DNA of 63,894 nucleotides, filler included, from NCBI GenBank assembly GCA_964501035.1. It is 3 parts of 3 records of this genome, joined end to end, with 100 filler letters (N's around TTAATTAATTAA, not from the genome) between each part and the next. Parts side by side here need not be neighbours in the genome. Positions count along the whole stretch, not along the records: positions 1 to 24,134 come from CAZCRK010000017.1; positions 24,235 to 48,268 come from CAZCRK010000018.1; 1 more part is not named here. One strand, written 5' to 3'. Made by a program: the position numbers and the translations under genes. The notes beneath the pieces are model-generated. The model was not told where the DNA came from. It ran no database searches and saw only the letters and a list, made by a program, of their open reading frames with translations. Position 1 is the first letter of the stretch, and each line of letters begins with the position of its first letter. Positions 6,365 to 32,504 of the stretch are shown one piece after another.

Positions 6365-9300
6365 ATGTATATAAGGGCTAAAATGATTAAAACGATATTT
6401 TTATCATGCTTAATTGCAAGCATCACATTTGCTAAATCATCATTTGTAATGAACGAAAAAAATAGTGTTTCAACGTCACTATCACTAGAAATTGAATCTC
6501 CAAATTTCCAAAAAACTGACGGGTTTGATACAATTATTTCTGATGGCACTGGAAAAACAATGGAAGTTGGAAAACCAGAATTACCCAGTTATTCTGTACA
6601 TATTCAAACTGAGCCCGGAGTGATGTATGATATTGAGTATAGTGTTTCAGAATCACAGGTATTTGAAAATATTCATTTATATCCTACTCAATCAATGGAA
6701 TTTGAAAGTAATCCAACTAATACACTGAGTAAGGATGATGTGTTTTATACCCAAAATAAAAAATATCCACTTAAAAATATGTCAACCTCACAGGCAATCT
6801 TTCGTGGAATATCCATGCAAAGTATTGAATTTATTCCCTATGAATATGATGCAAAAAATAAAAAATTAACGGTATTTACGCAGGTTGACTTTTCTCTCAC
6901 AAAAATTGAAAACAATGAAATTCAGCCAGTTTCAAGGCCAAAATCTGAAGTGTTTGAAAATATAGCGAGTAGTTTTCTTTTAGACTATGATTCCAACCGT
7001 GATGGCGAATATCAAACCCCATCAATTTTATATATTAGTGGAAGCAATTTAGCAGACCATCCTCAAATGCAAACTTTGGTAGATTGGAGAAAACTGCAAG
7101 GGTACGAGGTGCATGTAATTTCTGTCAGTGAAATAGGGTATACAAATAGCAGTATTAAAGCATATATTCAAACTGCGTATGATACGTGGGAAAACCCACC
7201 CGAATTTGTTTGTTTTATCGGAGATGCAAATGGTTCTGTGTCTGTTCCAACATATATTGTAGGACAATCTGGTTGGTATGGTGCTCAAGGTGAGGGAGAT
7301 TTCCCATATTCATTATTAGAAGGAGATGATTTAATTCCTGAAATTATAATTGGAAGAATGTCTGTTCGGAGCTCATCTGAATTTGTTACAGTTGTGAATA
7401 AAATTATTGGCTATGAGCGAGGGTATGCTGGTGAAATGGATTGGGTTGAATCGGCTGCTTTGGTGGGTGACCCCTATGATTCGGGGATTTCAACCGTTAT
7501 TACTAATGAGTATATTGAACAGTTAATGGATAATTATGGGATAGAAGATATTCGAACAAAATATTCAGGAAGTAATTTTGATTCATGGATGCAAGATCAA
7601 ATAAATTCAGGTATCTCGTATCTAAATTATAGAGGGTTTTATGGATTTAGTGGTTTCACCAGTAATGAAGTAAATGGATTGAGTAATGGGTACAAACTTC
7701 CTTTCATAACGACACTTACCTGCGCAACAGGGTCTTTCGAAGAAGAGGCAACAAGTATTATTGAAGATTTGTTTCGTGCTGGGACATCCGTAAATCCAAA
7801 GGGTGGTGTCGCAGTTATTGGAACAGCACAACCATATACACACACCGCTTTTAATAATATTGTAGATATGGGCATTTACGAAGGAATTTTTATTCATAAT
7901 GCTCAAACAGCCGGTGAAGCATTAGTGTATGGAGAACTAGCTTTACTTGAAACATACCCACATAATCCAAACAACAATGTATATTACTTTTCAACATGGA
8001 ATAATTTAATGGGTGACCCAGCGACTCAATTATGGACGGATACCCCAAAAAATCTACATCTTTCCCATGATTCAGTACTTAATAATGGAAGTGATTATAT
8101 TCAGTTTGAAATCACTGATGATTTAGGTTTACCTGTTGGAGATGCAAAAGTAACATTGGTTAAGGGGGACAGTGAGATTTTTGATACACAAACAGCAAAT
8201 GAAAATGGAATTGTTTCATTTAATTTGAATTATACTTCTTTAGGTGATGTAAACGTTCTTGCAACGTGTCAAAACTGCATTCCTGAAGAATCATCATTTG
8301 AAATTATTTCTGATTTACCGACGTTAAGTGTTGATGAATCTTCAATGCTGATAATTGACAATGGAAATAATGATCAAATTTGGAATGCAGGAGAAGAAGT
8401 AAGTATTCAATTCGAAGTGTTGAATCAATCAATGGATGATATTGAAAATATTCTTGTTTCGGTTCAATCTAACTCTTCATTTATTAATGCGGATGCCAAT
8501 GTTGAAACCATACCATCAATTTTAGGTAATAGTTCAGTTTTAGTTCAAATAATAGCAGGCGTGTCCGATGTTGATACACCCGATATGGAAAATTCAGAAA
8601 TTGTAATTCAATTAGAGATGGATGGACTTGTTTGGAATTACTATGTACCTATTCCCATTGCAAATGGATATGTGGAGCTATCAAAACAAATTATTGCTGA
8701 TGAAAACAATAACGGATTACTCGATAGAGGAGAAACGGTTGAGTTAGATGTTTTAATGGTAAATCTAGGTTCCATTCCCTTGACAGCAATAAGTGGTGAA
8801 ATTGAATATCAAGGGGATAAGTTAGTATTTTCCGAAACACAGTTCAATTGGTCAAATTTGAATTCTGGGCAATCCACTATTGCAACAAACTCTATTCAAG
8901 TAACATCCACCAATGAAATCATAAATGGTACCGTCATTTCGATTCCGGTAAACATCTCTACTTCTGAGGGATATTCAACCACTTCATTTTTTCAATTAGA
9001 AGTTGGTGAGGTCTCTGTCAATGACCCTCTTGGACCTGATAATTATGGTTACTATATTTATGATTCTGAAGATAATTTATATGAACAAGCACCAGAATAT
9101 AATTGGATTGAAATAGAACCAAGTTTAGGAGGAAATGGAGTAGAACTTGATATTAGTGATAATGGAAACAATCAAGATGAATCAACGACTGTGGATTTAC
9201 CGTTCACATTTACCTTTTATGGGGTAGATTATCATGAAATAACAGTGTGCTCAAATGGGTGGATTTCATTTGGTGAAACACCTATGGAATCATTTAGAAA

Positions 9301-10882
9301 TTATACATTACCTGGGCCCGGAGGACCATCTCCAATTGTAGCTGTATTTTGGGATGATTTAAAAACTACAAGTGGTTCTGCTGTATATTATTATTACAAT
9401 GTAGTTCAAGATTATGTTGTCATTGAATGGTCGGATGTTCGAACATATTGGGATAATTCTCGGGAATCATTTCAGATAATTTTATATGATTCAGATTTCA
9501 ATACTCCAACAGGTGATGATGAAATGAAACTCCAATATAAGGATTTCAATAATACAAGTGTGGGTGATTATCCGGTAGGTAATTATGATGGAGCTGTAAT
9601 TCACGGAGCATATTGTACAGTGGGGATAGAAGACCAAAATGGAACAGATGGATTACAATATACATTCAATGATGAATATCCAACTCCAGCACGTGAACTT
9701 GAAGATGGAATGGCACTGTTTATCACAACTCAAAATGCATCTTTGTATGCTGCCCCTACGGTTGAGTATAGTGATGATTTTTATGCATTTGAACTTGCAG
9801 GTGATGGAACTTCGTCTGCTGATTTAGCTATTTCAAATACAGGTGAATCTGGCTCAATATTAAATTATGAAATAACAGTTTCTCCTTTTGAAAACATGAT
9901 AGGAGTTGTAGATGGCTTTGGGTATGCATGGTCACATAGTAACATTCTTGAAAATGAAGCCCACGATTGGGTAGATATTTCAGAAGATCAAAATGTGAAC
10001 ACATTATCTTTTGAAGTAAATGATGAATCTCCTCCAGCAGTTAACATTGGATTTGAATTTCCATTTTATGGCGAAAATTATTCCCAATGCATTATTAACC
10101 CAAATGGTTGGATAGGATTTTCACAAGACCATAATGAGTGGTATAATGAGCCTGTATTTTCTGACAATTCTCCACGAAATGCAATATTAGCTTTTTGGGA
10201 TGACTTAAATCCAGTTTCGGATGATAATGAAGTTGGTGAGGGGTATGTTCGATATTTATCTACTTCAGAATATTTTGTCGTATGGTATGATCATGTTATA
10301 CATTGGTCAAGCAATGAAAAAATATATGATTTTCAAATTGTATTATATCCAAACGGAGAAATTGATGTCAATTACCGTGATATGATTGGTGATGTAACTT
10401 CTGCAACTGTGGGAATTGTGGATGAAAGTGGTGAAAATGGTCAACAAGTTGCATTCAATCAAAATTTTATTGAAGATGAACATTCCATATTTTTTCGAGC
10501 ATCTCCAAATTGGCTAAACTTAACATTAGAAACACCTGATTATAGCCAATCTATTCCATCGGGTGAATCTGCAGAATATTCAATATTAGTTTCATCGGAA
10601 AATTTAAATACGGGAATCTATGAAGCGTATATTAGTATTAATACAAATACAATTAATGATATTAATATTCCGATTGAGCTTCATGTTAATTTGAATATTA
10701 ATTTGGGTGATATTAACAATGATTCCATAATCAATGTTTTAGATATTGTACAATTAGTTTCGTTTATAATGGGAGATGATTCTCCAACATCATTTGAAGA
10801 AATCGCCTCAGATTATAATGAAGATGGAATAGTTGATGTAATAGATATTGTGCTCATTATTAATGTTATCATGGAAAGATAA
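6365..10882 (+). CDS. Secreted C25 (gingipain-family) protein with propeptide, Ig-like domains, two beta-rich modules and C-terminal dockerin-like domain
   Basis: Signal peptide; GKPELP propeptide; WRKLQGY, FIGDA, PEIIIGRMS, NLMGDP; dyad region NYRGFYG/TCATG; duplicated GDxNxD..(N/D)VxDIV at C-terminus (10706-10882). Confidence 0.9.
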   Translation: MYIRAKMIKTIFLSCLIASITFAKSSFVMNEKNSVSTSLSLEIESPNFQKTDGFDTIISDGTGKTMEVGKPELPSYSVHIQTEPGVMYDIEYSVSESQVFENIHLYPTQSMEFESNPTNTLSKDDVFYTQNKKYPLKNMSTSQAIFRGISMQSIEFIPYEYDAKNKKLTVFTQVDFSLTKIENNEIQPVSRPKSEVFENIASSFLLDYDSNRDGEYQTPSILYISGSNLADHPQMQTLVDWRKLQGYEVHVISVSEIGYTNSSIKAYIQTAYDTWENPPEFVCFIGDANGSVSVPTYIVGQSGWYGAQGEGDFPYSLLEGDDLIPEIIIGRMSVRSSSEFVTVVNKIIGYERGYAGEMDWVESAALVGDPYDSGISTVITNEYIEQLMDNYGIEDIRTKYSGSNFDSWMQDQINSGISYLNYRGFYGFSGFTSNEVNGLSNGYKLPFITTLTCATGSFEEEATSIIEDLFRAGTSVNPKGGVAVIGTAQPYTHTAFNNIVDMGIYEGIFIHNAQTAGEALVYGELALLETYPHNPNNNVYYFSTWNNLMGDPATQLWTDTPKNLHLSHDSVLNNGSDYIQFEITDDLGLPVGDAKVTLVKGDSEIFDTQTANENGIVSFNLNYTSLGDVNVLATCQNCIPEESSFEIISDLPTLSVDESSMLIIDNGNNDQIWNAGEEVSIQFEVLNQSMDDIENILVSVQSNSSFINADANVETIPSILGNSSVLVQIIAGVSDVDTPDMENSEIVIQLEMDGLVWNYYVPIPIANGYVELSKQIIADENNNGLLDRGETVELDVLMVNLGSIPLTAISGEIEYQGDKLVFSETQFNWSNLNSGQSTIATNSIQVTSTNEIINGTVISIPVNISTSEGYSTTSFFQLEVGEVSVNDPLGPDNYGYYIYDSEDNLYEQAPEYNWIEIEPSLGGNGVELDISDNGNNQDESTTVDLPFTFTFYGVDYHEITVCSNGWISFGETPMESFRNYTLPGPGGPSPIVAVFWDDLKTTSGSAVYYYYNVVQDYVVIEWSDVRTYWDNSRESFQIILYDSDFNTPTGDDEMKLQYKDFNNTSVGDYPVGNYDGAVIHGAYCTVGIEDQNGTDGLQYTFNDEYPTPARELEDGMALFITTQNASLYAAPTVEYSDDFYAFELAGDGTSSADLAISNTGESGSILNYEITVSPFENMIGVVDGFGYAWSHSNILENEAHDWVDISEDQNVNTLSFEVNDESPPAVNIGFEFPFYGENYSQCIINPNGWIGFSQDHNEWYNEPVFSDNSPRNAILAFWDDLNPVSDDNEVGEGYVRYLSTSEYFVVWYDHVIHWSSNEKIYDFQIVLYPNGEIDVNYRDMIGDVTSATVGIVDESGENGQQVAFNQNFIEDEHSIFFRASPNWLNLTLETPDYSQSIPSGESAEYSILVSSENLNTGIYEAYISINTNTINDINIPIELHVNLNINLGDINNDSIINVLDIVQLVSFIMGDDSPTSFEEIASDYNEDGIVDVIDIVLIINVIMER

Positions 10883-15741: not shown

Positions 15742-18150
15742 ATGCGATTTTCCAATTTTATACTTATCATCCCTTTTGTATTTGTACACTTCTTATTTGC
15801 ACAGATTAGCCAACCTGGAAATCCTAAACATCTTACAGAAAACTTGCAAAATGCCATCCATAAAATTTCGCTGCCAGAAGTCAACCGAGATGCACTTCTT
15901 TTAGAAGATGATTTTGAGATGAGCAAGGATGTACCATATCGCTTTGGAACTCCGTTCGATGTACAATTAAACTTAGAAAATTCAGGGTACTGGGAAGATG
16001 TGGAAGGTGGAAAAGTGTGGAGATTATCCATTCATTCACCCCATGCTTATTCCATAAATTTATTGTTTAGCAGGTATGTTTTACCCGAGGGTGCAGAACT
16101 ATTTATTTATGATGAACATATGGAAACGGTTTTAGGTGCTTTTACATCCGAAAATAATAAACCCCATGAAACATTTTCAACCTCACCAACACAGGGTGAA
16201 ACGACAATTTTAGAATATTTTGAACCTTCTCATGTTGATTTTGCAGGAGAAATTGAAGTAAGTCGAGTCGTGCATGCCTATCGGGATATATTTTTCAATA
16301 CTGATCGAGGATATAACGATTCAGGTTCGTGTAATAATAACGTAAATTGTCCTGATTTTTCAGATTGGACAGATGAGGTACGATCCGTTGCTATGATTTT
16401 AACCAGTGGTGGTTCCCGCATTTGCACGGGAGCACTTGTCAACAATACACGCCAAGATTTAACTCCATACTTTTTAACCGCAAATCATTGTTTAGGTGGA
16501 GAATCAAATTGGATATTCATGTTTGAATACGAAAGTGAAGGATGTTCAAATCAAGATGGACCAACCTATATGACCGTGCAAGGTTCGACCCTGTTAGACA
16601 ATGCTTCCACATCTGATTATGCATTATTGGAATTAGATGAAACCCCACCAGATTCTTACAATATTCACTATGCTGGGTGGTCAGCTGTAGATGTTGGACC
16701 CGTCAATCCTGTAGCAATTCACCATCCATCTGGAGATATCAAGAAAATTTCATTTGATTATGATACTGGTATATCAGATGGTTGGAGTAGCAATGATGGG
16801 TCTCATTGGCGAGTTGCAGATTGGGAAGATGGCACCACTGAACCGGGTTCGTCAGGGTCTCCACTGTTTGATAATAACCATAGAATTGTGGGACAACTGC
16901 ATGGTGGTGAAGCATCGTGTTCATATAATGTGAATGATTATTACGGTAAAGTTTCTACATCATGGAGTTTGGGTCTGAGTGACTATCTTGACCCTGATAA
17001 TACAGGGTTAACAGTGCTAGATGGAATTGATGCTATTGATTTGCCTGACCCTGAATTAACCTTTGATGCAACTGAATTTCAGTTTGAACTTGAAAGCAAT
17101 GATTCAGCGAGTGATTTATTTTCGATTGAAAATACAGGCGAAGCAGAATCCATTCTGTACTATTCATTGCAAACATCTCCATTTGAAGAAATAGGAGATG
17201 GACCAGATGGAGGGTACTATTGGACTGACACCGATACCGATGAAAGTATTGAATATGAATGGATTGATATTTCTGAATCTGCTGAATTAATAACATTCAC
17301 CAACAATGATGATTCAGAAGGTCCTTTTGACATTGGATTTGAATTTCCATTTTATGATGCACAGTACTCACAGCTAAATATAAATCCAAATGGTTGGCTT
17401 GGTTTTGGTGTGACAGGTAGCCAATGGGATAATACTGGCATCCCCTCTTCATCTATTGCAGGTCCTGCAATCTTTGGATTTTGGGATGATTTGAATCCAG
17501 AAAATGATGGATGTAATGAATATTGCTCCGGAAATGTATTTATGCATTCCAACTCAGATCGAATGGTGATTTGGTTCAACGATGTTGCTCATTGGTGGGC
17601 GAACTTTGAAAACAGTTATTATAATTTCCAAATTGTACTTTATGCCAATGGCGAAATTGCCATAAACTACCAAAGTATAACGGGTACTTATGCAGCTTCT
17701 GTGGGTATTCAAGAATCAGCTATGGTGGGAAGCCAAGTGAGTTTTAATCAGGATAATTTAGAAGCCCAGAAATCCATTGTTTTTGCCGCCACACCAGATT
17801 GGTTGACAGTTAATCCTACTGATGGCGAGTTATTAGACGGAGAATCTCAAACTATTTCTGTGAATGTGAATAGTGATGACTTGGTTTCAGGAGAATACAA
17901 TGCGTTTATTCGACTCGTATCTTCTGCCGGTTCAGCATCTATTCCTGTTTCACTCTTAGTGGATGGAGGGGTATCTTACATTTTAGGTGATGCAAACGGT
18001 GATTTAACCGTTGATGTTTTGGATGTTGTAATGATGGTAAACTTGATTCTTAATGGTGAAGGTGGTAACATTGCATCAGATGTAAACCAAGATAGTGAGT
18101 TAAATGTTCAAGATATAATTTTAACAGTAAATATTATTTTAGAAAACTAA
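15742..18150 (+). CDS. Secreted lysyl-endopeptidase-like serine protease (S1D) with C-terminal dockerin-like domain
   Basis: Signal peptide; triad TANHC / DYALL / GTTEPGSSGSP; VGQLHGG and DYYG as in Achromobacter protease I; dockerin 17986-18150; AAGGA SD. Confidence 0.9.
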   Translation: MRFSNFILIIPFVFVHFLFAQISQPGNPKHLTENLQNAIHKISLPEVNRDALLLEDDFEMSKDVPYRFGTPFDVQLNLENSGYWEDVEGGKVWRLSIHSPHAYSINLLFSRYVLPEGAELFIYDEHMETVLGAFTSENNKPHETFSTSPTQGETTILEYFEPSHVDFAGEIEVSRVVHAYRDIFFNTDRGYNDSGSCNNNVNCPDFSDWTDEVRSVAMILTSGGSRICTGALVNNTRQDLTPYFLTANHCLGGESNWIFMFEYESEGCSNQDGPTYMTVQGSTLLDNASTSDYALLELDETPPDSYNIHYAGWSAVDVGPVNPVAIHHPSGDIKKISFDYDTGISDGWSSNDGSHWRVADWEDGTTEPGSSGSPLFDNNHRIVGQLHGGEASCSYNVNDYYGKVSTSWSLGLSDYLDPDNTGLTVLDGIDAIDLPDPELTFDATEFQFELESNDSASDLFSIENTGEAESILYYSLQTSPFEEIGDGPDGGYYWTDTDTDESIEYEWIDISESAELITFTNNDDSEGPFDIGFEFPFYDAQYSQLNINPNGWLGFGVTGSQWDNTGIPSSSIAGPAIFGFWDDLNPENDGCNEYCSGNVFMHSNSDRMVIWFNDVAHWWANFENSYYNFQIVLYANGEIAINYQSITGTYAASVGIQESAMVGSQVSFNQDNLEAQKSIVFAATPDWLTVNPTDGELLDGESQTISVNVNSDDLVSGEYNAFIRLVSSAGSASIPVSLLVDGGVSYILGDANGDLTVDVLDVVMMVNLILNGEGGNIASDVNQDSELNVQDIILTVNIILEN

Positions 18151-18162
18151 AAGGAGAAGTAA

Positions 18163-21100
18163 ATGAAATATTTAATAATTATTCAACTTCAAATTGCAGT
18201 ATTGTTTGGTGCAAATTCATGGGTTGGGTTTCACTCAGATGTTCCTACAAAAACAGAAGTTGAAGTTGTTTCTTCAAATATCGATGAGACGGTATTAGAG
18301 TTTAGCATTAACGGATTTCACCTTCGGTCAATTGAGTTTGAAAAGGGTGAAATGGTAATTCCTCAGCTGGAAGATGGAGCATCTTTATTGATTGAATCCT
18401 CACCCGATATGCATTCATATTCAAAGTCAATTATTATACCAGATAATCAACGCATGGGTGTTGAAATCTTAGACGCAAGATATGAAGAATTTGAAAATAT
18501 TTCAATGGCTCCATCAAAAGGAAATATTAATCGTTTAGTTAATCCAAGTGAATTACCATTTGTTTTTGGAGAAGTATATGAAAATGATAGTTTTTTTCCT
18601 GGAGAGATTGTTGATTTAAAAACTCCGTATATTCTAAGAGATTTACGAGGTCAAACCGTTTCATTTCAACCATTTCAATACAACCCTATCACACATGTTT
18701 TGCGTGTGTATAAGTATATGAAGGTTAAAATTGAAAAAATGGGTGATGATGACCGAAATATTGTTGAATCACAGATGGATAGGCAATTTGTAGCAAATGA
18801 ATTTGAACATATGTACAAGAGTCATTTTTTGAATTTTTCAAATGATACTCGGTTTGATTACTTAGTGGATCATGGAAACATGTTAATTGTTTCGTATAGT
18901 TCTTTCTTAGAAACAATGCAACCATTAGTGGATTGGAAATTGAAAAAAGGAATACCCACTGAATTGATTGATGTTGCAGATATTGGTGGTACTTCTGGAG
19001 CAATAGAAGCATTCGTTGAAGATTACTACAATACACATGGACTCACATTTTTACTCTTAGTGGGTGATATTGCTCAAATTCCTTCACCTTCGGTTGGTGG
19101 TAGTGCTTCTGATGTCTCTTATGGTTGTATCAGTGGTAATGATTATTATCCAGAAATTATTGTAGGTCGTTTTTCGGGTAGTATTCCTTCCCATATTGAA
19201 ACACAAGTTTCTCGTTCAATTGAATATGAACGAAACCCTACAGATGCATTAGAATGGTATGATAATGCATTGGGAATTGCATCGAATCAAGGTCCTGGGC
19301 TTAATGGTTTTTCTGATGATGAATTTAATGACTTTTTATGGGAGACTGTTTTATCTGGATTTACCTATGATAGTTACCAAGGAATCTATGACCCAAGTGG
19401 TACCTTGACTCAAGGTATAAATGCAATTAATGCGGGTGTGAGTATTATTAATTACACAGGCCACGGTTCTATTAATTCTTGGGGGAATGGCGCTCCACTT
19501 TCCAATAGTAATGTCAATTCGTTAACGAATTCACATTTGTTACCGTTTGTGATAACAGTTGGGTGTAATGTTGGAGAATTTCAAAGTACGAATGAATGCT
19601 TTACTGAAACATGGTTACGGGCTACACATAATGGTGCACCAAGTGGTGCTATATCTCATTTTGGTTCAACCATTAGTCAATCTTGGGAACCACCCATGCA
19701 TGGTCAGTATGGAATGAATTTAATTTTGACAGAAAGTTATGATGAGCATTTAACTCGAACGATGGGTGGGATTACGACAAATGGTTGTATGTATATGAAT
19801 GATGTTCAAGGTGCATCTGGTATTAATGAAACTAAGTATTGGACATTTTTTGGAGACCCCAGTGTGCCATTACGAACTGCACCTCCAACTAGTATTTCTG
19901 CTTCATTTGATGATGTGATAATTTTGGGTACTCCTTCATTTTCTGTGAATACTGGAAACGAAGGTGATTTGATTGCAATTTCTCGAAATGGTGAGTTATT
20001 ATCTTCAGGATATTCAGATTCAAATGGTTTAGCGTCGCTTGATTTAAGCAACGTATCATCTATACCCGGAGAAGTTGATTTGGTCATTACTGGATTTAAC
20101 TCATATCCTTTTGAAACTACATTAATGGTACTTTCACCTGATGGTCCTTTTGTAATGGTAGAATCATTTGAAGTAAACACGGCCATCAACAGTTCCATTA
20201 TTGAGTATGGTGAAGATGTTTCGCTTGGGCTATATTTAGAAAATGTTGGTAATGATAATGCAGAAAATGTTGAAGTAGTTATGTCTACTTTGGATGAATA
20301 CATAACCATCACATCGAATCAGGCATCAATTTCTATAATAGACGCAAACTCAACTGGATTTGTTGAAGGTTTGGAATTTCAAGTGTCATATAACATTCCC
20401 AATGATTATAGTTTTTCTATCGATTGTATCATAACGGATGGGAATGAAACGTGGGAATCAGAACTTAATTTGACAGCGTATGCACCCACAATTGAAATTG
20501 AAAGTGTAGATGGTATGTTAAATCCAGGTGAGAGTTCAGGAGTAACCGTAATTTTGCAAAATGTAGGAGGTGCAGTAATCAACTATCCAATGGTATCTGC
20601 ATCAGATGATGGTTCTTTTGAAATTACGGTCGAATCGTTTACAAATGCATATTATTGGGACAATAATCCAAATTTTAACAGCGAAGTATTGGAATTAGAA
20701 ATATTTGTAAATCCAACGACTCCTATTGGACATATTGCAGAATTTGAACTCTTCATCAATCAGTTAAATACGGAATATGAGTCTATGGTTTATTTTACCA
20801 TTCCTGTCGGCCAAGTTACGGAAACATTTGAAGCAGGATTTGAAATGTTGGATTGGAACATGTCGGGTAATGCCGATTGGATTATTGATGACTCTGAATC
20901 AAATTCAGGTATGTTAAGTGCTAAATCAGGTGCAATTGGAAATAGTCAAAACTCAGATTTAAGTGTAACACTTGAAATAACTGAGTCTGGTGTTATTGAG
21001 TTTAACTATAAAGTATCCGCAGAGTATTCTTCATCTGGTAGTTACTTTTATGATGGATTAGAGTTTTACATTGATAGCAACCTGCAAGACCAACATCAAT

Positions 21101-21465
21101 CGACAACTACAGGTGGTGCACCCTGGACTGAAGTTAGCTATCCTGTAACTGCTGGTGAGCATACATTTACCTGGTCATTTGTGAAAGATGGTGGTGGGGG
21201 TTCTACTGATTGTGATAATACAGATTGTGAAGATGCAGCATGGATTGATGACATAGTCTTTCCTCCAGCATATGTAGATGATCCACCTGAAATAGTATTG
21301 GGTGATGTTAATTTTGACAATTCTATCGATATCTTAGATATTGTTATGATGGTCAATATGATTTTGGGAACCGAAATATCAAATACTGCAGGTGATGTAA
21401 ATGAAGATGGTGAGATTAATATTATGGATGTGATACTCACAATAAATATTATTTTAGAGAGTTAA
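18163..21465 (+). CDS. Secreted C25 gingipain-like cysteine peptidase with C-terminal dockerin-like domain
   Basis: Propeptide (PYILRDLRG), LLVGD, EIIVGRFS, intact NYTGHGS and VGCNVG dyad, FGDPS; dockerin 21301-21465; AAGGAG SD. Confidence 0.93.
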   Translation: MKYLIIIQLQIAVLFGANSWVGFHSDVPTKTEVEVVSSNIDETVLEFSINGFHLRSIEFEKGEMVIPQLEDGASLLIESSPDMHSYSKSIIIPDNQRMGVEILDARYEEFENISMAPSKGNINRLVNPSELPFVFGEVYENDSFFPGEIVDLKTPYILRDLRGQTVSFQPFQYNPITHVLRVYKYMKVKIEKMGDDDRNIVESQMDRQFVANEFEHMYKSHFLNFSNDTRFDYLVDHGNMLIVSYSSFLETMQPLVDWKLKKGIPTELIDVADIGGTSGAIEAFVEDYYNTHGLTFLLLVGDIAQIPSPSVGGSASDVSYGCISGNDYYPEIIVGRFSGSIPSHIETQVSRSIEYERNPTDALEWYDNALGIASNQGPGLNGFSDDEFNDFLWETVLSGFTYDSYQGIYDPSGTLTQGINAINAGVSIINYTGHGSINSWGNGAPLSNSNVNSLTNSHLLPFVITVGCNVGEFQSTNECFTETWLRATHNGAPSGAISHFGSTISQSWEPPMHGQYGMNLILTESYDEHLTRTMGGITTNGCMYMNDVQGASGINETKYWTFFGDPSVPLRTAPPTSISASFDDVIILGTPSFSVNTGNEGDLIAISRNGELLSSGYSDSNGLASLDLSNVSSIPGEVDLVITGFNSYPFETTLMVLSPDGPFVMVESFEVNTAINSSIIEYGEDVSLGLYLENVGNDNAENVEVVMSTLDEYITITSNQASISIIDANSTGFVEGLEFQVSYNIPNDYSFSIDCIITDGNETWESELNLTAYAPTIEIESVDGMLNPGESSGVTVILQNVGGAVINYPMVSASDDGSFEITVESFTNAYYWDNNPNFNSEVLELEIFVNPTTPIGHIAEFELFINQLNTEYESMVYFTIPVGQVTETFEAGFEMLDWNMSGNADWIIDDSESNSGMLSAKSGAIGNSQNSDLSVTLEITESGVIEFNYKVSAEYSSSGSYFYDGLEFYIDSNLQDQHQSTTTGGAPWTEVSYPVTAGEHTFTWSFVKDGGGGSTDCDNTDCEDAAWIDDIVFPPAYVDDPPEIVLGDVNFDNSIDILDIVMMVNMILGTEISNTAGDVNEDGEINIMDVILTINIILES

Positions 21466-21481
21466 AAGTTAAACAAAAGAT

Positions 21482-21513
21482 AAAAAAGCCTCTGATTTCA
21501 GGGGCTTTTTTTT
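21482..21513 (+). terminator. Rho-independent terminator after the C25 gene
   Basis: AAAAAAGCCTCTGA-TT-TCAGGGGCTTTTTTTT hairpin with U tract. Confidence 0.85.
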
Positions 21514-21558
21514 ATTCTATTATTAAATGTAAATTGCAAATCAACTTTAAGGAAAATA

Positions 21559-23823
21559 ATGAAATTTAAACATACACATTTTATCCATATCATATTCTTG
21601 TTTTCAATTGTGTTACCACAATCTTTTCATGTCCAACCCTATATTCAAAATATTAGTAGAAGTAATGCAATTATTATGTGGGAAACCACTTCTGGAAATC
21701 AATCAATTGTGGAGTGGGGCACCACCCCATCTTTAGGCGAAATTACTAGCGGAGATGCAGTTAACAGTTACAATAGTGCTTATGTGCATACGGTGAGTTT
21801 AGAATATTTAGACACTAATACCCAGTATTTTTATAAAGTGAAAACAAATTCTCTTGAATCAGATGTGTTTAGTTTTGTTACCCAAAAACCATTTTCATTT
21901 GAAAGTTCAACTCGATTAGTCGCGATGAGCGATATGCAAAAAGATTGGAGTAATTGGGATAAATTTGAAGAGATTGTACATGATGGTATCATCGATTATA
22001 TTGAAGATGACCTTGGTGAAACACTGCCCCTAGCATTGGATATGGTGTTAATTCCGGGTGATTTGGTTGATGATGGGCACGATTATGACCAATGGTCAGA
22101 CCATTTTTTCGGACCAGCACACCCTTTGTTTGCTTATTCGCCAGTGTATCCCGTCTATGGAAATCATGAGCAAAATACGAGTTATTTTAGCATGTATTTT
22201 GATTTACCCCATAATGCAAGCCAAGGTTATGATGAGCATTGGTGGTGGAAAGATGTGTCAAATGTGCGTGTTATAGGGCTTGATTCAAATGGAAATTATC
22301 AGATTAATGAGCAACTATCATGGTTAGATGAAATATTAGATCAATCATGCACCGATGAACATATTGATTTTGTTTTTGCTCAACTTCATCACCCGCATCA
22401 CTCAGAGCTTTGGATTGCAGGAAATACTGATTTTACCGGTGAAGTCATAACGAGGTTGGAAAATTTTTCCACACAATGTGGTAAACCAAGTATCCACTTT
22501 TTTGGTCATACTCATGGCTATTCACGGGGGCAATCCATGGAGCATCAGCATGTTATGGTGAATGTGGCTTCTGCTGGAGGTGCTATTGATAACTGGGGTG
22601 AATATGCGCAATTTGATTATCCAGAATATTCAGTTTCGCAAGATGAATGGGGATTTATAGTTGTTGATATTGAAGCTGGAGATAATCCGCAGTTTACCAT
22701 AAAACGAATAAGTAGAGGAAATGAGTTGCAACCACGCGATAATGAATTGAGGGATGAGGTTACCATTCGGTTATGGAACACACCCCCTTCAACACCGGTT
22801 CCAACGGCACCTATTGGCGCAAATATTAACCCAGATTTACTTGTATTGGATGGTGGTAATTTTATAGATGTTGATGGTGATGAACATGGGTTTACTCAAT
22901 GGCAAATTTCTTCCGATTGTTATGATTTTTCAAACCCTATTGTGGATGAATATGAAGCATACGAGAATTGGTATTTCAATATTGATACCCAAGCTGGAAA
23001 TAGTTTAACAACATTTGAGATGGATTACGTACCTGCCAATACTGAATACTGTTGGAGAACACGGTATAGAGATAAACATTTAGTTTGGAGTGAATGGTCT
23101 GAACCACTCGAGTTTTCAACTGGTAATTCATTATTTTCAGCCAACTTAATTACCAATGGTGATGCAGAAAATGGAATCGATGGTTGGACGATTAACGAAG
23201 GAGTATTTGAATCACTACTTGCATTTGATTGTAATGGTGTTGAACCCAATTCGGGTGATTATTATTTCTCAGTTGGTGGGTTATGTGAATCAAGTGAGTT
23301 TGCAGAAGTGATGCAAAATATTGATGTGATTGAATATGCAAACTGTATTGATTCAGAAGAAGCTACAGTTCGTTTTTCTGGATATTTATCGAATTGGGGT
23401 GGTGATGATATTCCGGAAATGCATATTGAATTTTTAGATGCGTTTCATAATGTTATTTCGGTAGGTGAATCACTTACGACCAATATTTCTAATTGGACTG
23501 AACTATCTCAAACAATGACTATTCCTATTCAAACCTCAAACATAAGAGTGGTTTTAACCGGAACGCGATATGCTGGTGATGATAATGATAGTTATTTTGA
23601 TGATGTATCCCTAAATATTTTAACCACACCCACGTGTAATGTACTGATGGGTGATGTAAATGCAGATGAAATTATTAATATTTTAGATGTCATCATTATC
23701 ATTAATATTGTTATGGACAATGAAGCAACGGAATATCAGTATTTGGTTGCAGATGTGAATGAAGACGGTATTATCAATATTTTAGATATTGTTATGTTGG
23801 TGAATATTATTTTAAATAATTAA
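21559..23823 (+). CDS. Secreted purple-acid-phosphatase-type metallophosphoesterase with FN3, galactose-binding-like and dockerin-like domains
   Basis: SDMQ, GDLVD, GNHE, HHP, GHTH motifs; WSEWS FN3 end; dockerin 23650-23823. Confidence 0.9.
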   Translation: MKFKHTHFIHIIFLFSIVLPQSFHVQPYIQNISRSNAIIMWETTSGNQSIVEWGTTPSLGEITSGDAVNSYNSAYVHTVSLEYLDTNTQYFYKVKTNSLESDVFSFVTQKPFSFESSTRLVAMSDMQKDWSNWDKFEEIVHDGIIDYIEDDLGETLPLALDMVLIPGDLVDDGHDYDQWSDHFFGPAHPLFAYSPVYPVYGNHEQNTSYFSMYFDLPHNASQGYDEHWWWKDVSNVRVIGLDSNGNYQINEQLSWLDEILDQSCTDEHIDFVFAQLHHPHHSELWIAGNTDFTGEVITRLENFSTQCGKPSIHFFGHTHGYSRGQSMEHQHVMVNVASAGGAIDNWGEYAQFDYPEYSVSQDEWGFIVVDIEAGDNPQFTIKRISRGNELQPRDNELRDEVTIRLWNTPPSTPVPTAPIGANINPDLLVLDGGNFIDVDGDEHGFTQWQISSDCYDFSNPIVDEYEAYENWYFNIDTQAGNSLTTFEMDYVPANTEYCWRTRYRDKHLVWSEWSEPLEFSTGNSLFSANLITNGDAENGIDGWTINEGVFESLLAFDCNGVEPNSGDYYFSVGGLCESSEFAEVMQNIDVIEYANCIDSEEATVRFSGYLSNWGGDDIPEMHIEFLDAFHNVISVGESLTTNISNWTELSQTMTIPIQTSNIRVVLTGTRYAGDDNDSYFDDVSLNILTTPTCNVLMGDVNADEIINILDVIIIINIVMDNEATEYQYLVADVNEDGIINILDIVMLVNIILNN

Positions 23824-27013: not shown

Positions 27014-27014
27014 C

Positions 27015-28712
27015 TTAAATTAGTTCATCAAGTTCTGTTTGAACAAAACTCATTAAATCCTTAATGGTTGATTCAGAAAAATCAAATTTTATTCCCATTG
27101 CATCCCACACTTCAGGTAGTGGTTTTGAATTACCAAGAGATAATCCGTTAATGTATCCATTCAAGCCATTCTCTGCATTTTGCTTATAATTTCGATACAC
27201 TTGTAACGCACCAAGCTGTGCAATTGCATATTCAATATAATAAAATGGAACACTAAATATATGTGATTGTCGTTGCCAATTTACGGCTCTATAATGTTCT
27301 AATCCATCCCAATTTACTGTACCAAAAAATCTGTTTAGAAGTTCCATAAAATGATTATTTCTTTCATCCACTGAATGTTCAGGATTAAGATATACCCAAT
27401 GCTGAAAAGCATCAACAGTTGCACACCATGGGAAAATACCAAATATACCCTCTAAATGCTCTCTTCGTGCTCGTATAAAATCTTCATGAGAATAAAACAA
27501 ATCCCATCTACTGCTTGAGATTAATTCCATACTCATACTTGCAGTTTCAGCCATTTCTGATGGAGTACTTCGATACTGAACTAAGGGTTCACTATTACAT
27601 AAAAATGTATGCATAGCATGCCCACCCTCATGCATCATAGTAACCACATCTCGTTGAGTCCCAGCTGAATTCATAAAAATAAATGGCATCCCAGTTGCTT
27701 CAAGGGGATAATTATATCCACCAGGAGCCTTGCCTTTACGAGAATCTAAATCAAACAAACCCGATGCATCCATTTTTTGTAAATTATTACCAAATTCTGC
27801 CTTTACGTGTGAAAAAATTGAAATTGATTTCTGAAGCAACTCCTTCCCATCTGAAAAAGGTCGAAGTGCTTTCTCACCTCGGGGTACCCCTGTTGTGTCC
27901 CACGGGCGATAATCATCAGAACTAAGTTCTAATTTTTCACATCTTTTAAGTGATATATCTCTTGAAATAGGAACGACATACTTTTCAATAGCATTATGGA
28001 ATGTTATAGTGTCTTCTGGCACATAATCAAATCGTTTTAATGCATCATGTTTATAATTTCTATAATTATCATATCCAGCATTTACTGCAATTTGATGGCG
28101 GAGTTTAACCATTTCAGAATACAAATCATTTAACTCACCTCGAACCTTATATCGAGAATCATGGATTGCATACCAAGCATCTTTCCGTTTTTGCCTGTCA
28201 CTTGATTGTAATTTAACTGATGCTTGTGGGAGTGGAAGATCTTCATCATCAATTTTTGCAGTTAAAGCACCTACTGTTTGTTCAAACTTTGAAGATAATT
28301 TACTTAACTTAGCATCAATAGGAATATTTTCTTCAACATATAAGTCTATTTCTCGCTGAATCCCCTTTAACAACTGGTCATATCGTTGAAAATCTAACTC
28401 TTTTACAAAAGGACTTTCAGAAATTTTTAGATCAATCAGATTAGATGCTTTTGTTGCTTCGGGGGCAATAACACTCGAAAACAATTCATAGTGCTTAACA
28501 TATTCTGTATTATCTGTATGGCATGACATATTGATATACGACCATGCGTATTTTTCACCAAATAGTGCAATGAGTTCACTATAGTGAAGAATAAAATCTT
28601 CTAAATCTGAAACAGAATTAATCTCTTTATTGTTGAGTTCAGTAAAAAGTGGTTTTAAATCATCCCAACATGTAATGTCACATTTTTGTGAAATATATTT
28701 AAATTGAATCAT
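27015..28712 (-). CDS. pepF: M3 oligoendopeptidase F family
   Basis: RPWD, RKGKAPGGY, HEGGH, EMAETASMSME, PFYYIEY; start placed at MIQFKY. Confidence 0.9.
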   Translation of the reverse strand: MIQFKYISQKCDITCWDDLKPLFTELNNKEINSVSDLEDFILHYSELIALFGEKYAWSYINMSCHTDNTEYVKHYELFSSVIAPEATKASNLIDLKISESPFVKELDFQRYDQLLKGIQREIDLYVEENIPIDAKLSKLSSKFEQTVGALTAKIDDEDLPLPQASVKLQSSDRQKRKDAWYAIHDSRYKVRGELNDLYSEMVKLRHQIAVNAGYDNYRNYKHDALKRFDYVPEDTITFHNAIEKYVVPISRDISLKRCEKLELSSDDYRPWDTTGVPRGEKALRPFSDGKELLQKSISIFSHVKAEFGNNLQKMDASGLFDLDSRKGKAPGGYNYPLEATGMPFIFMNSAGTQRDVVTMMHEGGHAMHTFLCNSEPLVQYRSTPSEMAETASMSMELISSSRWDLFYSHEDFIRARREHLEGIFGIFPWCATVDAFQHWVYLNPEHSVDERNNHFMELLNRFFGTVNWDGLEHYRAVNWQRQSHIFSVPFYYIEYAIAQLGALQVYRNYKQNAENGLNGYINGLSLGNSKPLPEVWDAMGIKFDFSESTIKDLMSFVQTELDELI

Positions 28713-29742
28713 TATTTTTCTCTTTGATAAATTTTTCTTTTTGGGTTTGGAAATATTCATATTGCGGGTTAATTTCTATTGCTTCATTGATAACGTCAAT
28801 AGCTTCATCAAAACGTTTTAACTTGAATAATACTTCCGCTTGAGTATCAAGTATATTTGCTTTGGTTTTTAAATCTTCTGTTAAATTTACTGCTTGGATT
28901 GCTATTTCTAAAGCATGTCCCAAATTTTTCTCAATTTCTGACATTCGCCACGCATATCCATTTAATACGGATGCATCATTGGGATATAATGTTATCAACT
29001 CAATTTGCAATTTTATTTCTTTATCAATATTGCTTGTAGATGCATAATGCCGAATTAACGTTTGAAATGCATCTTTCGTATAGGGTGAGTCAGGATATAA
29101 GGATGTATATTCTAACAATTTACTATCATTCCCTGTAACAAGAGATTGAACAGAAATCATATAGTGTGCTTTCAAAAATGATTCTCTAGATAAATCACCC
29201 AACTGTAACAATTCTTCGTAAAGTTTGACAGCATTAACAATATCCCCTTTGTTTTCATATTTTTCAGCTAATATTTCTAATGTTTCTGCGCTGTGATCGC
29301 CCATTTCGTACCGTTTTAAGACATCCTTAAACGTATTCTTGTTCGATGCTATTTCGTTTATTTTTTGAAGGTAATCAGCTGGCATCATATACCCAATGAC
29401 CCTATCAATCTCATTTTTTTGATTATCAATAAAGACTAAATGAGGAACTCCCGAGCATCCAAATTCTTGGAATAGAGCATTACCCAAAGAATCATTTGCG
29501 TTCAATTTAATACTGATAAAATGGTCTTGTGAAAATTGAATAACTGACTCATCTGAAAATGTATCGGCATCCAGCCGATCGCACCATGGTCAAGTATCCG
29601 TATAAAAATCTATAAGTAGTATTTTATCTCCTGCACTTGAAAGAGCTTCATCAAATGTACCAGAAAACCAAGGATACTCAACTTTTGAACACCCAATAAA
29701 CTGCAATACTACTAATACACCAATTATTAATAATTTCTTCAT
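28699..29742 (-). CDS. Thioredoxin-fold/TPR lipoprotein, probable selenoprotein (UPWC, TGA codon 51 at 29590-29592), 347 aa
   Basis: ATG at 29742 with lipobox FIGC; in-frame ...LLIDFYTDT-TGA-PWC-DRLDADTF... continues into the ORF at 29505; cis-Pro GVPHLVFID; TPR-like C-terminus. Confidence 0.85.
29563..29579 (-). promoter_or_regulatory. Bacterial SECIS-like hairpin
   Basis: mRNA: UGA-CCAUGGUGCG-AUCGGC-UGGAU-GCCGAU; perfect 6-bp stem starting 10 nt after UGA, with G in the loop. Confidence 0.7.
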
Positions 29743-29839
29743 AAGTTTCCTATTTTAAAGCCGTTAATTTACTAAAGATGTGGAACGTAACCAATTTGAA
29801 ATAAAAGGGAAATCTAAACTGAAAATCAGCATAAATTTA

Positions 29840-30646
29840 ATGATGGGATTAAAGATAAAATTAAAACAAATTTTACCTAGAGAACATGGCGCTTGGGCTA
29901 TGCTGTTTGTACCAATTTTAATTGGATTGTCGATTGTTGAATGGTCTCTGGATATTGGACTAATATGTTTTTTAATGATTTTATTATTTATTGCACATCA
30001 TCCCATAAATACATACATAAAACAAAAAATTAATCGGAAGAATAAACAATTATTAGTAATTGGGCTGTCGTTTTATTTACTAATCATTCTAGGTGGAGTT
30101 TATTTATTATTTAACTATCAATCTTTGCAATTTGTTTTGCTATGTTGCTTGGCGATGCTAACATTTGTCTTTCATTTGTTCTTGTCTTACAAGAAAAAGG
30201 AGTTAAGTACAGTAAACGAATTAATTGGAATTGTTGGACTAACTGTTTCAGCACCATTATTATATGTTATGAATGAAAATAGATTAGACTTTATTGCATA
30301 TTATGTTTGGGGAGTTAATTTTGTATATTTTGCATCCACTGTTTTTTACATTAAGCTACGTGTTAGATTATTGCCAAAGGTAAATCGTCAACTTAGTCTA
30401 TTTGATAAATTGATGTTAGGAAAATATTCTATACTCTCCTTAATTATCCCCATGTTGTTTTCTGGAATATTCTTAAATACAATAATCCTAATCCCTTTAA
30501 TACCACCTTTAATAAAAGTAATTATATGTTTAGTGAACTGGACTCCAAGTACAAAGCTAAACATAAAACATATTGGGTATTTAGAAATAGTTTTGTCAAT
30601 ATTGTTTCTAATATTGACACCACTAGTTATTCGAACTTTGCACTAA
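29840..30646 (+). CDS. YwiC-like membrane protein
   Basis: PREHGAWAML signature, multiple TM segments, IGYLE near C-terminus; start placed at ATG 29840. Confidence 0.8.
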   Translation: MMGLKIKLKQILPREHGAWAMLFVPILIGLSIVEWSLDIGLICFLMILLFIAHHPINTYIKQKINRKNKQLLVIGLSFYLLIILGGVYLLFNYQSLQFVLLCCLAMLTFVFHLFLSYKKKELSTVNELIGIVGLTVSAPLLYVMNENRLDFIAYYVWGVNFVYFASTVFYIKLRVRLLPKVNRQLSLFDKLMLGKYSILSLIIPMLFSGIFLNTIILIPLIPPLIKVIICLVNWTPSTKLNIKHIGYLEIVLSILFLILTPLVIRTLH

Positions 30647-30647
30647 T

Positions 30648-30674
30648 AAAAAAGGGAGCGATGCTCCCTTTTTT
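30648..30674. terminator. Bidirectional terminator between convergent ywiC-like and FKBP genes
   Basis: AAAAAAGGGAGC-GAT-GCTCCCTTTTTT. Confidence 0.9.
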
Positions 30675-30675
30675 A

Positions 30676-31503
30676 TTATTTTATATCTATTAATTCAACC
30701 TCAAATATAAGCGTGGCATTTGGTGGAATCAAACCTCCAGCGCCTCGTTCCCCGTAAGCAAGGTCTGATGGTATGATCAAAGTTCGTTTACTACCTATGT
30801 TCATGGTTGCAAGCGCTTGATCCCAACCTTTTATAACACGACCAGCTCCAATTGGAAAAGAAAAGGGTTGACCTCTATCATGTGAACTATCAAACCGTTT
30901 TCCACTTTCGAGCATTCCAGTATAATGAACAAATACAGTTTGCCCTTGTTTTGGGGTATCACCTTCTCCTTTTACATGTTCAATCATACGTAAACCGGAG
31001 TCTAACACAATTTCTTGACCTGGTAGTGAATAGTCAGTATCAACAAATGCAGCTTCAACACTAATAAGTTCTACTTCAAAAACAAGTGTTGCGTTTGGTG
31101 GAATTGTAGAACCTGCACCTCTTTCACCATATCCCAATTCAGATGGAATCACCAATGTTCGTTTTCCGCCTTTTTTCATGGTGGAAACACCTTCGTCCCA
31201 GCCTTTTATAACTTGACCTACGCCAATTGTAAATTGAAATGGCTGATTTCTATCTACAGAACTGTCAAATTTAGTGCCATCTTCTAGAGTTCCCGTGTAA
31301 TGTACCGTTACTCTATCACCAGTTTTGGGGTAATCCCCTGTTCCAATTACTTCATCTGTATATTTTAACCCAGAATCCGTTGTTTGTTCAACACCTACCA
31401 CAGTTTCCTCCACAATTTCTTTGTTAGCTTCATCATTAGTTGCGTCTGAGCATGACCAAAATAATGAAGATAATATTAATAGTTTTACTAAATTAGTTTT
31501 CAT
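30676..31503 (-). CDS. Lipoprotein with two FKBP-type peptidyl-prolyl isomerase domains
   Basis: Lipobox FWSC; twice VHYTG..FDSS.DR.QPF..VIKGWD..YGERGAG..IPPNATL.FEVELI. Confidence 0.95.
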
Positions 31504-31559
31504 ATTTCCTCTTATAAAATGACCGATAAGTTACGTGTATTGGGGTGGACTAAAAAATA

Positions 31560-32504
31560 TTATTCTGAAATAACAATATTCACTATTTCAACTATATCTA
31601 TCACATTCAATATTCCATCTTCATTTATATCAGCTCTATATTGTTGTTCTTCTGATAAAGTTGATGTATTTATTATATGATTTACTACCATTATTATATC
31701 AACCACATTTATATTATTATCACCACTTACGTCACCGATAAGGTAGTCTACAAAAAAATATGCTCGTTCTACTAATGTTGCATCTAGAATATAGGGATTT
31801 GGTTTATTTTCTTGATAGTTTGCAATCGCCCATGTTCTATCTATTTCTTCTTGTGTTGCAGGATCTTGAAGATGCCATTGGTATAATGTTTCTTTTTGTG
31901 TTTCAAAAAACTCATCATCCGCAACTGATTCATACATTGTATAAAAATAGAACATTGTACGAGCCATATCGCCTTTTTTTTCTTCTCTGGGTTCAAAATA
32001 TTGAGATGAACTTTCACTGTATTCATCAATGTTACTTGATGGGATATTACTATAATTGTAAGATTGCCAATACCAATGATCAGCATTTGAGTCTGTAATT
32101 TCCCCAAAAGGTTTATTTCCACGAGATGAATTCACATTTTCTTTACATGGCCGTAAATGGTGCATATCGCTTTTCATTGGGCTTGAACCAGAATACATGC
32201 TCTGAGGCCACACATGTTCACAGTTCATTCCATTTTCGTAGAGATAACTACTTGGGTCAACACCATCTGGAAGTTCTGTATAGTAATTAGTATAAATTCC
32301 ATACACCTTTCCGTCTATTTTATCTATTTCGCTATACAATATATCTCTAGCTGAGTTATATCCTAACGTGGAGCTTGTCTTATAATTATTATGTAAATAG
32401 TCAATCAACCCATCTTCAACCAAACCATCGCCAATGATAGTTTGTGAAAAAAGGAATGAAAGCAAATTGGTTAAAACCAATAGTATGAATGTTCTTTTCA
32501 ACAT
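31560..32504 (-). CDS. Secreted endonuclease I family nuclease with C-terminal dockerin-like domain
   Basis: NCEHVWPQS, SDMHHLRP, NSSRGN, KGDMAR..FY, Q..NPY; dockerin 31560-31736; GAGGA SD before MLKRT. Confidence 0.92.
   Translation of the reverse strand: MLKRTFILLVLTNLLSFLFSQTIIGDGLVEDGLIDYLHNNYKTSSTLGYNSARDILYSEIDKIDGKVYGIYTNYYTELPDGVDPSSYLYENGMNCEHVWPQSMYSGSSPMKSDMHHLRPCKENVNSSRGNKPFGEITDSNADHWYWQSYNYSNIPSSNIDEYSESSSQYFEPREEKKGDMARTMFYFYTMYESVADDEFFETQKETLYQWHLQDPATQEEIDRTWAIANYQENKPNPYILDATLVERAYFFVDYLIGDVSGDNNINVVDIIMVVNHIINTSTLSEEQQYRADINEDGILNVIDIVEIVNIVISE

Follow-up and report, generated by a model that had tools for sequence, protein, structure and literature searches.

How five secreted enzymes of such different families come to end in the same duplicated calcium-binding module is the question raised by the DNA analyzed here, a stretch of 63,894 nucleotides from the genome assembly GCA_964501035.1 (the window) in which the contigs C17 (positions 1-24134), C18 (24235-48268) and C38 (48369-63894) are joined by runs of N. 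The enzymes are two C25 peptidases, a lysyl endopeptidase, a purple-acid-phosphatase-like protein and an endonuclease I, and the module resembles the dockerin of cellulosomal enzymes. The original prediction, made from this stretch, treated the five as a unit of their own. After analysis of the whole genome (1.87 Mb, 95.7% complete) and of its relatives, we consider it probable that they belong to a larger, peptidase-rich cohesin-dockerin assembly directed at protein, nucleic acid and organophosphate, which would be anchored at the cell surface by means of the system for type IX secretion (T9SS).

Dockerin tails and their cargo

The five enzymes were found at the positions at which they had been predicted, distributed, as foreseen, over two contigs (C17 and C18), and Pfam searches confirmed a C-terminal dockerin in each of them. 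The first, encoded on the plus strand at 6365..10882, is a secreted, gingipain-like C25 peptidase of 1505 amino acids with two NIDO-like modules (C25, 189.5 bits; Propeptide_C25; NIDO); its N-terminus is signal-peptide-like according to a crude heuristic, and its dockerin (Dockerin_1, 27.8 bits in hmmscan) occupies residues 1447-1502 (nucleotides 10703-10870). Further along C17 lies a same-strand run of three dockerin genes (15742-23823), the first of which codes for a secreted S1 lysyl endopeptidase of 802 amino acids (15742..18150, plus strand; Trypsin_2, 38.7 bits; Trypsin) with a C-terminal dockerin at nucleotides 17983-18147; the name given to this enzyme earlier was upheld by its match to Achromobacter protease I (1arb, E 4e-42). 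Twelve bases past the end of this gene begins that of the second secreted C25 peptidase (18163..21465, plus strand; 1100 amino acids), in which Pfam recognized a propeptide, a C25 Ig-like domain and a dockerin at nucleotides 21298-21453 (37.2 bits), and the run is completed by a secreted purple-acid-phosphatase-like metallophosphoesterase of 754 amino acids (21559..23823, plus strand; Pur_ac_phosph_N, Metallophos), the dockerin of which (35.1 bits) lies at nucleotides 23650-23814. The secreted endonuclease I (318 amino acids) is encoded on the minus strand of C18 at 31560..32516 (Endonuclease_1, 106 bits; Dockerin_1, 34.8 bits, nucleotides 31581-31736). In none of the five enzymes did hmmscan find Por_Secre_tail, the mark of the C-terminal sorting domain (CTD) of the T9SS, at E <= 0.01.

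The identity of the tails was assessed from their scores, their calcium loops and their resemblance to solved structures. In hmmscan, four of the five exceeded the gathering cut-off of Dockerin_1 (Pfam PF00404, 22.9 bits) with scores of 27.8-37.2 bits, while that of the lysyl endopeptidase reached 21.4 bits, slightly below the cut-off, and 25.0 bits, above it, in a six-frame search. All ten loops carry D at positions 1, 5 and 12, and position 3 is N in nine of them and S in one. The dockerins of the lysyl endopeptidase and the second C25 peptidase are of a short-linker type, and those of the other three enzymes of a long-linker type. When 49 C-terminal dockerins from the genome were combined into a profile, it matched 26 solved chains (E <= 0.001); by their titles, at least 22 of these are dockerins or dockerin-bearing cellulosome or amylosome proteins (top matches 2ccl_B, 6kg9_A and 1ohz_B, with the Clostridium thermocellum Xyn10B dockerin heading the list), and one is a generic EF-hand protein (GCAP3, E 3.6e-5). 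Since the profile finds dockerins and a single generic EF-hand, the window tails are, as judged from sequence profiles, canonical two-loop dockerins and not generic EF-hands.

The gene ends themselves were reproduced by contigs from other seawater runs, none of them marked as a possible origin of this DNA, which extend across the ends of the dockerin-coding genes in the same gene order and free of indels (X3 record 1 spans 15742-19930 and X4 record 13 spans 20377-22541). The module is also kept in homologues. The phosphatase has counterparts in 10 related genomes (50-64% identity) that align through the dockerin to residue 752-753, and the endonuclease I has one in most related genomes (open frames of 302-356 amino acids) that aligns to residue 315-318, with the dockerin retained at 30.9 bits in a copy from the same genus. 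The reading of the tails as generic EF-hands, low-complexity repeats or assembly artefacts, which is favored by the hmmscan score of one of the five, has in our opinion next to no chance of being correct; besides this conservation, it is ruled out by the Pfam scores of the other four, the six-frame search, the first rank of solved dockerins in the profile comparison and the contigs of other runs.

How special are these five dockerins within the genome? The genome-wide Dockerin_1 search that had been proposed along with the original prediction gave 67 six-frame matches at E <= 0.01, and a genome-derived profile seeded on the five window tails retrieved 65 dockerin open reading frames (ORFs), i.e., about 35 per Mb and 7.0% of the genome bases, 58 of which were matched by Pfam Dockerin_1 as well (E <= 0.001). 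In 49 of the 65, no more than 10 residues separate the dockerin from the C-terminus; judged by a crude rule based on hydrophobicity, Sec export is likely for 54 of the 62 whose N-terminus is contained in the contig; and 35 fall in 14 runs of adjacent genes, the trio at 15742-23823 included. The window enzymes are thus five members of a set of 65 and not a separate unit. A similar correction applies to the hydrophobic pair at loop positions 10-11. We read this pair from the translations exactly as reported before (VL/VI, VL/VQ, IL/IM, IL/IL and VV/VI), when it was taken as a specificity mark of the five; the two duplicated segments can be aligned across the dockerin ORFs of the genome, however, and the consensus of the 49 C-terminal dockerins is GDxNxDxxxNVLDIV. 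Such a pair is the norm here and is therefore uninformative on a shared specificity of the five.

The expectation of non-carbohydrate cargo was borne out overwhelmingly across the 65 ORFs. A peptidase domain above the Pfam cut-off is present in 18 of them (six C25, four S8, three M14, and one each of C10, M6, M1, S9 and S1), and other cargo comprises a Porphyromonas-type peptidyl-arginine deiminase (PAD_porph), Endonuclease_1, an Exo_endo_phos nuclease/phosphatase and the purple acid phosphatase, together with four Arylsulfotrans (ASST) proteins, a PNGase-F-like protein (N-glycanase_C), CotH and a PETase-like esterase; in about 16 ORFs the dockerin is the sole recognized family. No glycoside hydrolase exceeded the Pfam cut-off in any of the 65, the sole hint being a GH43 match of 21.5 bits against a cut-off of 32.2.

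Several individual proteins of this set deserve mention. Two of them carry peptidase-inhibitor domains, Kunitz_BPTI (40.2 bits, C1:71197-72741) and Thyroglobulin_1 (53.2 bits, C4:56353-58623), so that inhibitors may be docked beside proteases. The PNGase-F-like protein (C62:7989-9818) is unique among the 65 in that its dockerin is N-terminal (residues 46-101), directly after the signal peptide, and contig C2 holds a trio of C10, FG-GAP and C25 proteins. The NIDO module of the 1505-residue C25 peptidase (window 9200-10500), which may bind substrate, recurs in three further C25 dockerin proteins (L057, L062 and L078) with 24.3-32.3 bits, the 24.3 bits of L057 being slightly below the 25-bit cut-off; a NIDO-like F.FPFY...NPNGW..F stretch was noticed by eye in the lysyl endopeptidase (window 17200-17800).

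Cohesin-like modules, sorting domains and relatives

A dockerin-bearing set of this size raises the question of its partners. The search of the genome for cohesins, likewise proposed earlier, revealed four Pfam Cohesin modules in three ORFs, all outside the window: a protein of at least 2177 amino acids that runs off the end of contig C9, a 251-residue protein composed of a signal peptide, a cohesin and a Por_Secre_tail (hereafter the anchor protein), and a 539-residue protein with a cohesin, LRR and a dockerin. The anchor protein was found at 17 of 20 loci taken from relatives (37-81% identity); in a search of related loci with the anchor alignment, 670 candidate stretches passed tblastn, nearly all of which matched the generic T9SS CTD only. 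When a profile of the anchor cohesin was iterated on the genome, it gave 35 modules in 19 ORFs, most of which are of a compact type of about 100 amino acids with the motif GFQF...ASGG...VLGFS.TG..IPAG.

As an iterated profile can drift, the compact type was tested separately. It has 26 matches in the genome at E <= 1e-5 beyond the Pfam Cohesin modules, it aligned with the anchor cohesin in hhalign (75.8% probability, E 2.3e-5), and its AlphaFold2 model (predicted local distance difference test score 88.4) retrieved cohesins as the first-ranked matches in Foldseek (best 2xdh, E 5.2e-4), with 7-21% identity to proven cohesins. According to this model, the compact module has a cohesin fold, and we did not place it in Pfam Cohesin. 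The family counts 3429 representative proteins at E <= 0.001, a number that drops to 420 when the threshold is set at E <= 1e-30, with up to 13 matched stretches in one protein.

The distribution of these modules recalls scaffoldins. At least four kinds of cohesin-like module occur in the system, namely the cohesin of the anchor protein, the Pfam-type cohesin of scaffoldins, the compact module and a mini-module of certain dockerin tails described below; five ORFs combine a cohesin-like module with a dockerin in the manner of adaptor scaffoldins, and the multi-module scaffoldins of the genome hold six (the C9 ORF) and four modules (a C55 ORF of at least 2540 amino acids), compared with six to nine per scaffoldin in relatives. 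Pfam reported no carbohydrate-binding module (CBM) family in the scaffoldin ORFs scanned, and given the lack of glycoside hydrolases above the cut-off in the cargo, the system is therefore, strictly speaking, no cellulosome. The repetition of modules interrupts the sequence assembly of the scaffoldin genes: the last module on C19 (C19:22124-22531) is identical in alignment to the first at the end of C9 (C9:39088-39405), and the two contigs probably meet within a single scaffoldin gene that codes for two compact modules as well as a CTD. Cleaved_Adhesin, which is the adhesin module in Porphyromonas gingivalis gingipains and HagA, is also present in two giant representatives of the compact-cohesin scaffoldins (110.8 and 235.5 bits).

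Many of the cohesin proteins end in a sorting domain. Complete scaffoldins of relatives consist of three to six compact modules followed by a C-terminal T9SS domain (e.g., 2358 amino acids with six modules and 2707 with three), and of ten long compact-module representatives scanned, eight end in Por_Secre_tail and five also hold a Pfam cohesin. This genome itself codes for a complete 740-residue protein with a compact module, LTD and a CTD, and for an 861-residue fragment with a module and a CTD. The presence of T9SS sorting domains on cohesin proteins makes their surface display plausible. Parts of the secretion system were recognized too, namely a SprA_N match, 37 Por_Secre_tail matches, a PorU-like protein (308.8 bits against a cut-off of 420) and PorV-like proteins that are likewise below the curated cut-off. 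The SprA_N matches (C12:28161-29980) fall in two open frames of 1487 and 857 amino acids, which means either that the translocon gene contains a frameshift or an error of sequencing, or that two genes are present.

The original prediction had set dockerin and CTD against each other, the former replacing the latter on the enzymes. They are not simple alternatives, since 10 dockerin ORFs also end in a T9SS CTD. In these tails, 84-114 residues with an AGIQVEG-type motif separate the two domains, and this mini-module aligned with the compact module in hhalign (88.3%, E 2.9e-6); Foldseek applied to the whole dockerin/mini-module/CTD tail gave two-Ig-domain look-alikes only (template modeling scores of 0.2-0.3), the RgpB CTD (5ag8) among them. 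An actual exchange was met with in one case only: the C25 peptidase at 18163..21465 shares 33% identity over 955 amino acids with a C25 ORF of a Cloacimonadota metagenome-assembled genome (JARRCD010000001.1), which has a T9SS CTD at the place of the dockerin. The nuclease and phosphatase homologues scanned in dockerin-poor relatives either kept the dockerin or had LTD or TPR extensions, and none of them had a CTD. About 50 dockerin ORFs combine a signal-peptide-like N-terminus with the lack of a CTD.

The comparison with relatives requires a host, and here the Bacteroidota frame of the original prediction was not retained. Among language-model clusters, the one closest to the anchor protein is labeled Fidelibacterota (a label for which the phylum is known for three members only), the DNA is present in seawater and brine metagenomes of several studies, and the phylum includes streamlined genomes of about 1 Mb; on account of this label, habitat and streamlining, the host is probably a SAR406/Marinimicrobia (Fidelibacterota) seawater bacterium. 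Dockerin matches number 31-98 in the 18 genomes of the same family, each of which also has one or more Pfam cohesins. Among other families of the order, counts are 59-96 in f2 and f4, 7-109 in f3 and 0-2 in f5. In a phylum sample, 76 of 121 genomes have a dockerin match, with 0-16 per genome outside the order (a count of 48 in this sample stands for at least 48). Across 31 genomes, i.e., this one and 30 relatives, the numbers of dockerins (0-109) and compact modules (0-45) rise together with a Spearman rho of 0.84, and with a rho of 0.73 among the 26 genomes that have at least 30 dockerins; in the five genomes at the low end (0-8 dockerins), compact modules number 0-2. The most telling point is the contrast within f3, in which 109 dockerins go with 45 modules and 7-8 dockerins with one or two. 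As the genomes are kin, p-values overstate this co-variation.

The proposed surface assembly and other explanations

The modules and their numbers, the compact-module fold, the T9SS tails and the way in which counts co-vary among relatives, as observed here, led us to the following proposal. About 65 Sec-exported proteins, mainly peptidases, would bear a two-loop calcium-binding dockerin, mostly at the extreme C-terminus, and this dockerin would plug into cohesin modules, mostly of the compact type of about 100 amino acids, on giant scaffoldins and on the conserved 250-residue protein. The cohesin proteins with a T9SS sorting domain would be exported and fixed on the outer face of the outer membrane, and the outcome would be a protease-rich assembly at the cell surface that degrades polymers near TonB-dependent uptake. 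The binding of dockerin to cohesin, the location of the complex and its substrates are in this proposal deduced from sequence. Compared with the shared surface 'degradosome' suggested earlier for the five enzymes, the idea of surface docking remains plausible, as both cohesins and T9SS tails exist in the genome; the five do not, however, make up a unit of their own, being a fraction of 65, and a docking partner common to them, if there is one, might be any of at least four kinds of cohesin-like module.

Several points weigh against the surface assembly. Pfam Cohesin matched none of 17 compact modules at E <= 10 and, at E <= 0.1, nothing in whole compact-module proteins except for two classical modules of the ORF L060, and the sequence profile of the compact module found no significant solved cohesin in the PDB (best 5n5p_A, E 0.47); the assignment of this module depends on the predicted fold and one profile-profile match. 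The full architecture of the scaffoldins had to be deduced from relatives, because the scaffoldin genes of this genome are cut by contig ends, those of C9, C55, C87, C130, C21 and C126. The co-variation may partly reflect genome size and lineage, the basis for the phylum is an automatic cluster label and habitat rather than marker genes, and no RNA dataset was among those listed as containing the three-gene stretch 15742-23823. Finally, the proposal offers the approximately 50 CTD-less dockerin proteins no route across the outer membrane, and enzymes that stayed periplasmic would not meet cohesins on the surface.

This gap would allow for a hitch-hiker route by way of the T9SS, in which dockerin enzymes bind cohesin-CTD carriers in the periplasm, pass the translocon together with them in a folded complex and remain on display, the cohesin-dockerin pair acting as a trans-acting type IX secretion signal for the CTD-less enzymes. 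Such a route would extend the surface assembly rather than exclude it. It agrees with the signal-peptide-like, CTD-free state of about 50 of the 65 dockerin ORFs, with the T9SS parts and the 37 CTD matches, with the conservation across the order of a protein that has nothing but a signal peptide, a cohesin and a CTD, and with the failure of a GspD and PilQ model search to reveal a clear type II secretin. However, the genome has two secretins, both below the GspD and PilQ cut-offs, that may serve a type II route, and we know of no precedent for trans-acting T9SS signals; we therefore regard the hitch-hiker route as quite unlikely, and the role of the pair as such a signal as no less so. Alternatively, the dockerins might be calcium-dependent stabilizing or adhesion modules, or bind a surface glycan or substrate, with no docking to scaffoldins at all, and the cohesin-fold proteins might have a separate role, e.g., in adhesion. 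Dockerins outside cellulosomes and without a known partner are reportedly widespread (Peer et al. 2009, as cited in PMC8542988), most of the dockerin-bearing genomes of the phylum sample have just 1-16 of them, and the low identity of the compact module to proven cohesins attests to its divergence, all of which would suit this explanation. We nevertheless find it unlikely, since dockerin and compact-module counts co-vary across relatives, cohesin-like modules and dockerins are joined in the five adaptor-like ORFs, and the modules follow one another in tandem along giant proteins, an arrangement like that of scaffoldins. The assemblies might also be released, either free or on outer-membrane vesicles, and act on distant particles, for T9SS cargo in Bacteroidota can be released or vesicle-borne and several of the cohesin-dockerin adaptor proteins have no CTD. 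Yet the complete scaffoldins and the 250-residue protein end in CTDs, a PorU-like sortase is present, and release would presumably be wasteful for a planktonic cell with a small genome in dilute seawater, which together make this possibility very unlikely.

Neighboring genes, known systems and significance

The nuclease gene on C18 lies at the end of a same-strand run (32673-48242, minus strand) composed of a TonB-dependent receptor, a 792-residue ORF, a PorV-like ORF, two T9SS-CTD proteins and a TPR protein, which looks like an uptake-and-surface locus of the type known from polysaccharide utilization loci. Adjoining the nuclease gene is that of a T9SS-CTD protein of 1079 amino acids (32673..35912; Por_Secre_tail, 31.6 bits; FlgD_ig; CHU_C), and a second one of 1283 amino acids is encoded at 37323..41174 (Por_Secre_tail, 34.1 bits). 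The PorV-like outer-membrane protein (41144..42193; 349 amino acids) is a weak match to NF033710 T9SS_OM_PorV (C18:17312-17902, with 47.7 bits against a cut-off of 250), and no Pfam family was found in it at E <= 1e-5. The TonB-dependent receptor (44568..48242; TonB_dep_Rec_b-barrel, 94.1 bits; CarbopepD_reg_2, 63.7 bits), which has a CarboxypepD_reg N-terminal domain, is a candidate uptake route for degradation products. Contig C38 (48369-63894) shows numerous short ORFs on one strand and is outside the present finding.

The closest known system is the cellulosome-like complex predicted from the genome of Candidatus Stygibacter (Cloacimonadota), for which a proteinaceous substrate was proposed (Williams et al. 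2021, PMC8542988). Both systems have signal-peptide enzymes with a C-terminal dockerin, C25 and S8 peptidases included, and a giant scaffoldin that lacks catalytic domains and carries cohesins in tandem as well as a T9SS CTD, the Stygibacter complex being likewise a genomic inference. Stygibacter has a handful of enzymes, GH18 and GH57 among them, and one scaffoldin of 3755 amino acids with CBM2/CBM3, whereas the present genome has 65 dockerin ORFs, the cargo of which comprises nucleases, a phosphatase, a peptidyl-arginine deiminase and members of the ASST family, with no glycoside hydrolase above the cut-off. It also differs in its compact cohesin-fold module unseen by Pfam, its 250-residue cohesin-CTD protein, its tails of dockerin, cohesin-like module and CTD, its phylum and its seawater habitat. 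A 'planctosome' for polypeptide degradation was described in freshwater Planctomycetes (Andrei et al. 2019, as cited in PMC8542988), again in a different phylum. The amylosome of Ruminococcus bromii (PMC4611034) and the mucinolysome of Limousia (PMC12997984) are also cohesin-dockerin complexes on non-cellulose substrates, and they differ in belonging to gut Firmicutes with glycan-directed cargo and no T9SS.

With the clostridial cellulosome (C. thermocellum CipA cohesins and the type I dockerin of Xyn10B, PDB 1ohz/2ccl), the present system shares the duplicated 22-residue F-hand dockerin and adaptor proteins with a cohesin and a dockerin. The former has a monoderm host, anchoring by S-layer homology domains or sortase, and a cargo of carbohydrate-active enzymes acting on the plant cell wall, whereas the latter has a T9SS-bearing (diderm) host, CTD anchoring, a cargo of peptidases, nucleases and phosphatase, and cohesins about 40 residues shorter. 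In P. gingivalis, C25 gingipains are displayed through a T9SS CTD of their own. C25 peptidases, a peptidyl-arginine deiminase and carboxypeptidases are proteolytic cargo of a T9SS organism in both cases, but P. gingivalis carries a CTD on each enzyme, whereas here it is mostly the enzyme that bears the dockerin and the cohesin protein that bears the CTD.

Comparable complexes are thus already in print for Cloacimonadota and, as cited in PMC8542988, for Planctomycetes, and the system described here is a variant of this known kind. A literature search, the coverage of which ended short of subscription journals and supplements, retrieved among the papers listed none linking dockerins with Marinimicrobia, SAR406, Marinisomatota, Fidelibacterota or Marine Group A. 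The variant would add diderm bacteria, with anchoring by the T9SS, to the range of cohesin-dockerin assembly, and it uncovers a large family of predicted cohesin fold (3429 representative proteins) outside Pfam coverage. If the hitch-hiker route were true, one small carrier and a few scaffoldins would export and organize about 7% of the coding capacity of the genome as a surface 'proteolysome'. SAR406/Marinimicrobia rank with the ocean's most abundant uncultured bacteria, and how they feed is poorly known. Should the assignment to this phylum hold, the proposed surface machine would offer a testable mechanism for the turnover of organic nitrogen and phosphorus, both high-molecular-weight dissolved and particulate.

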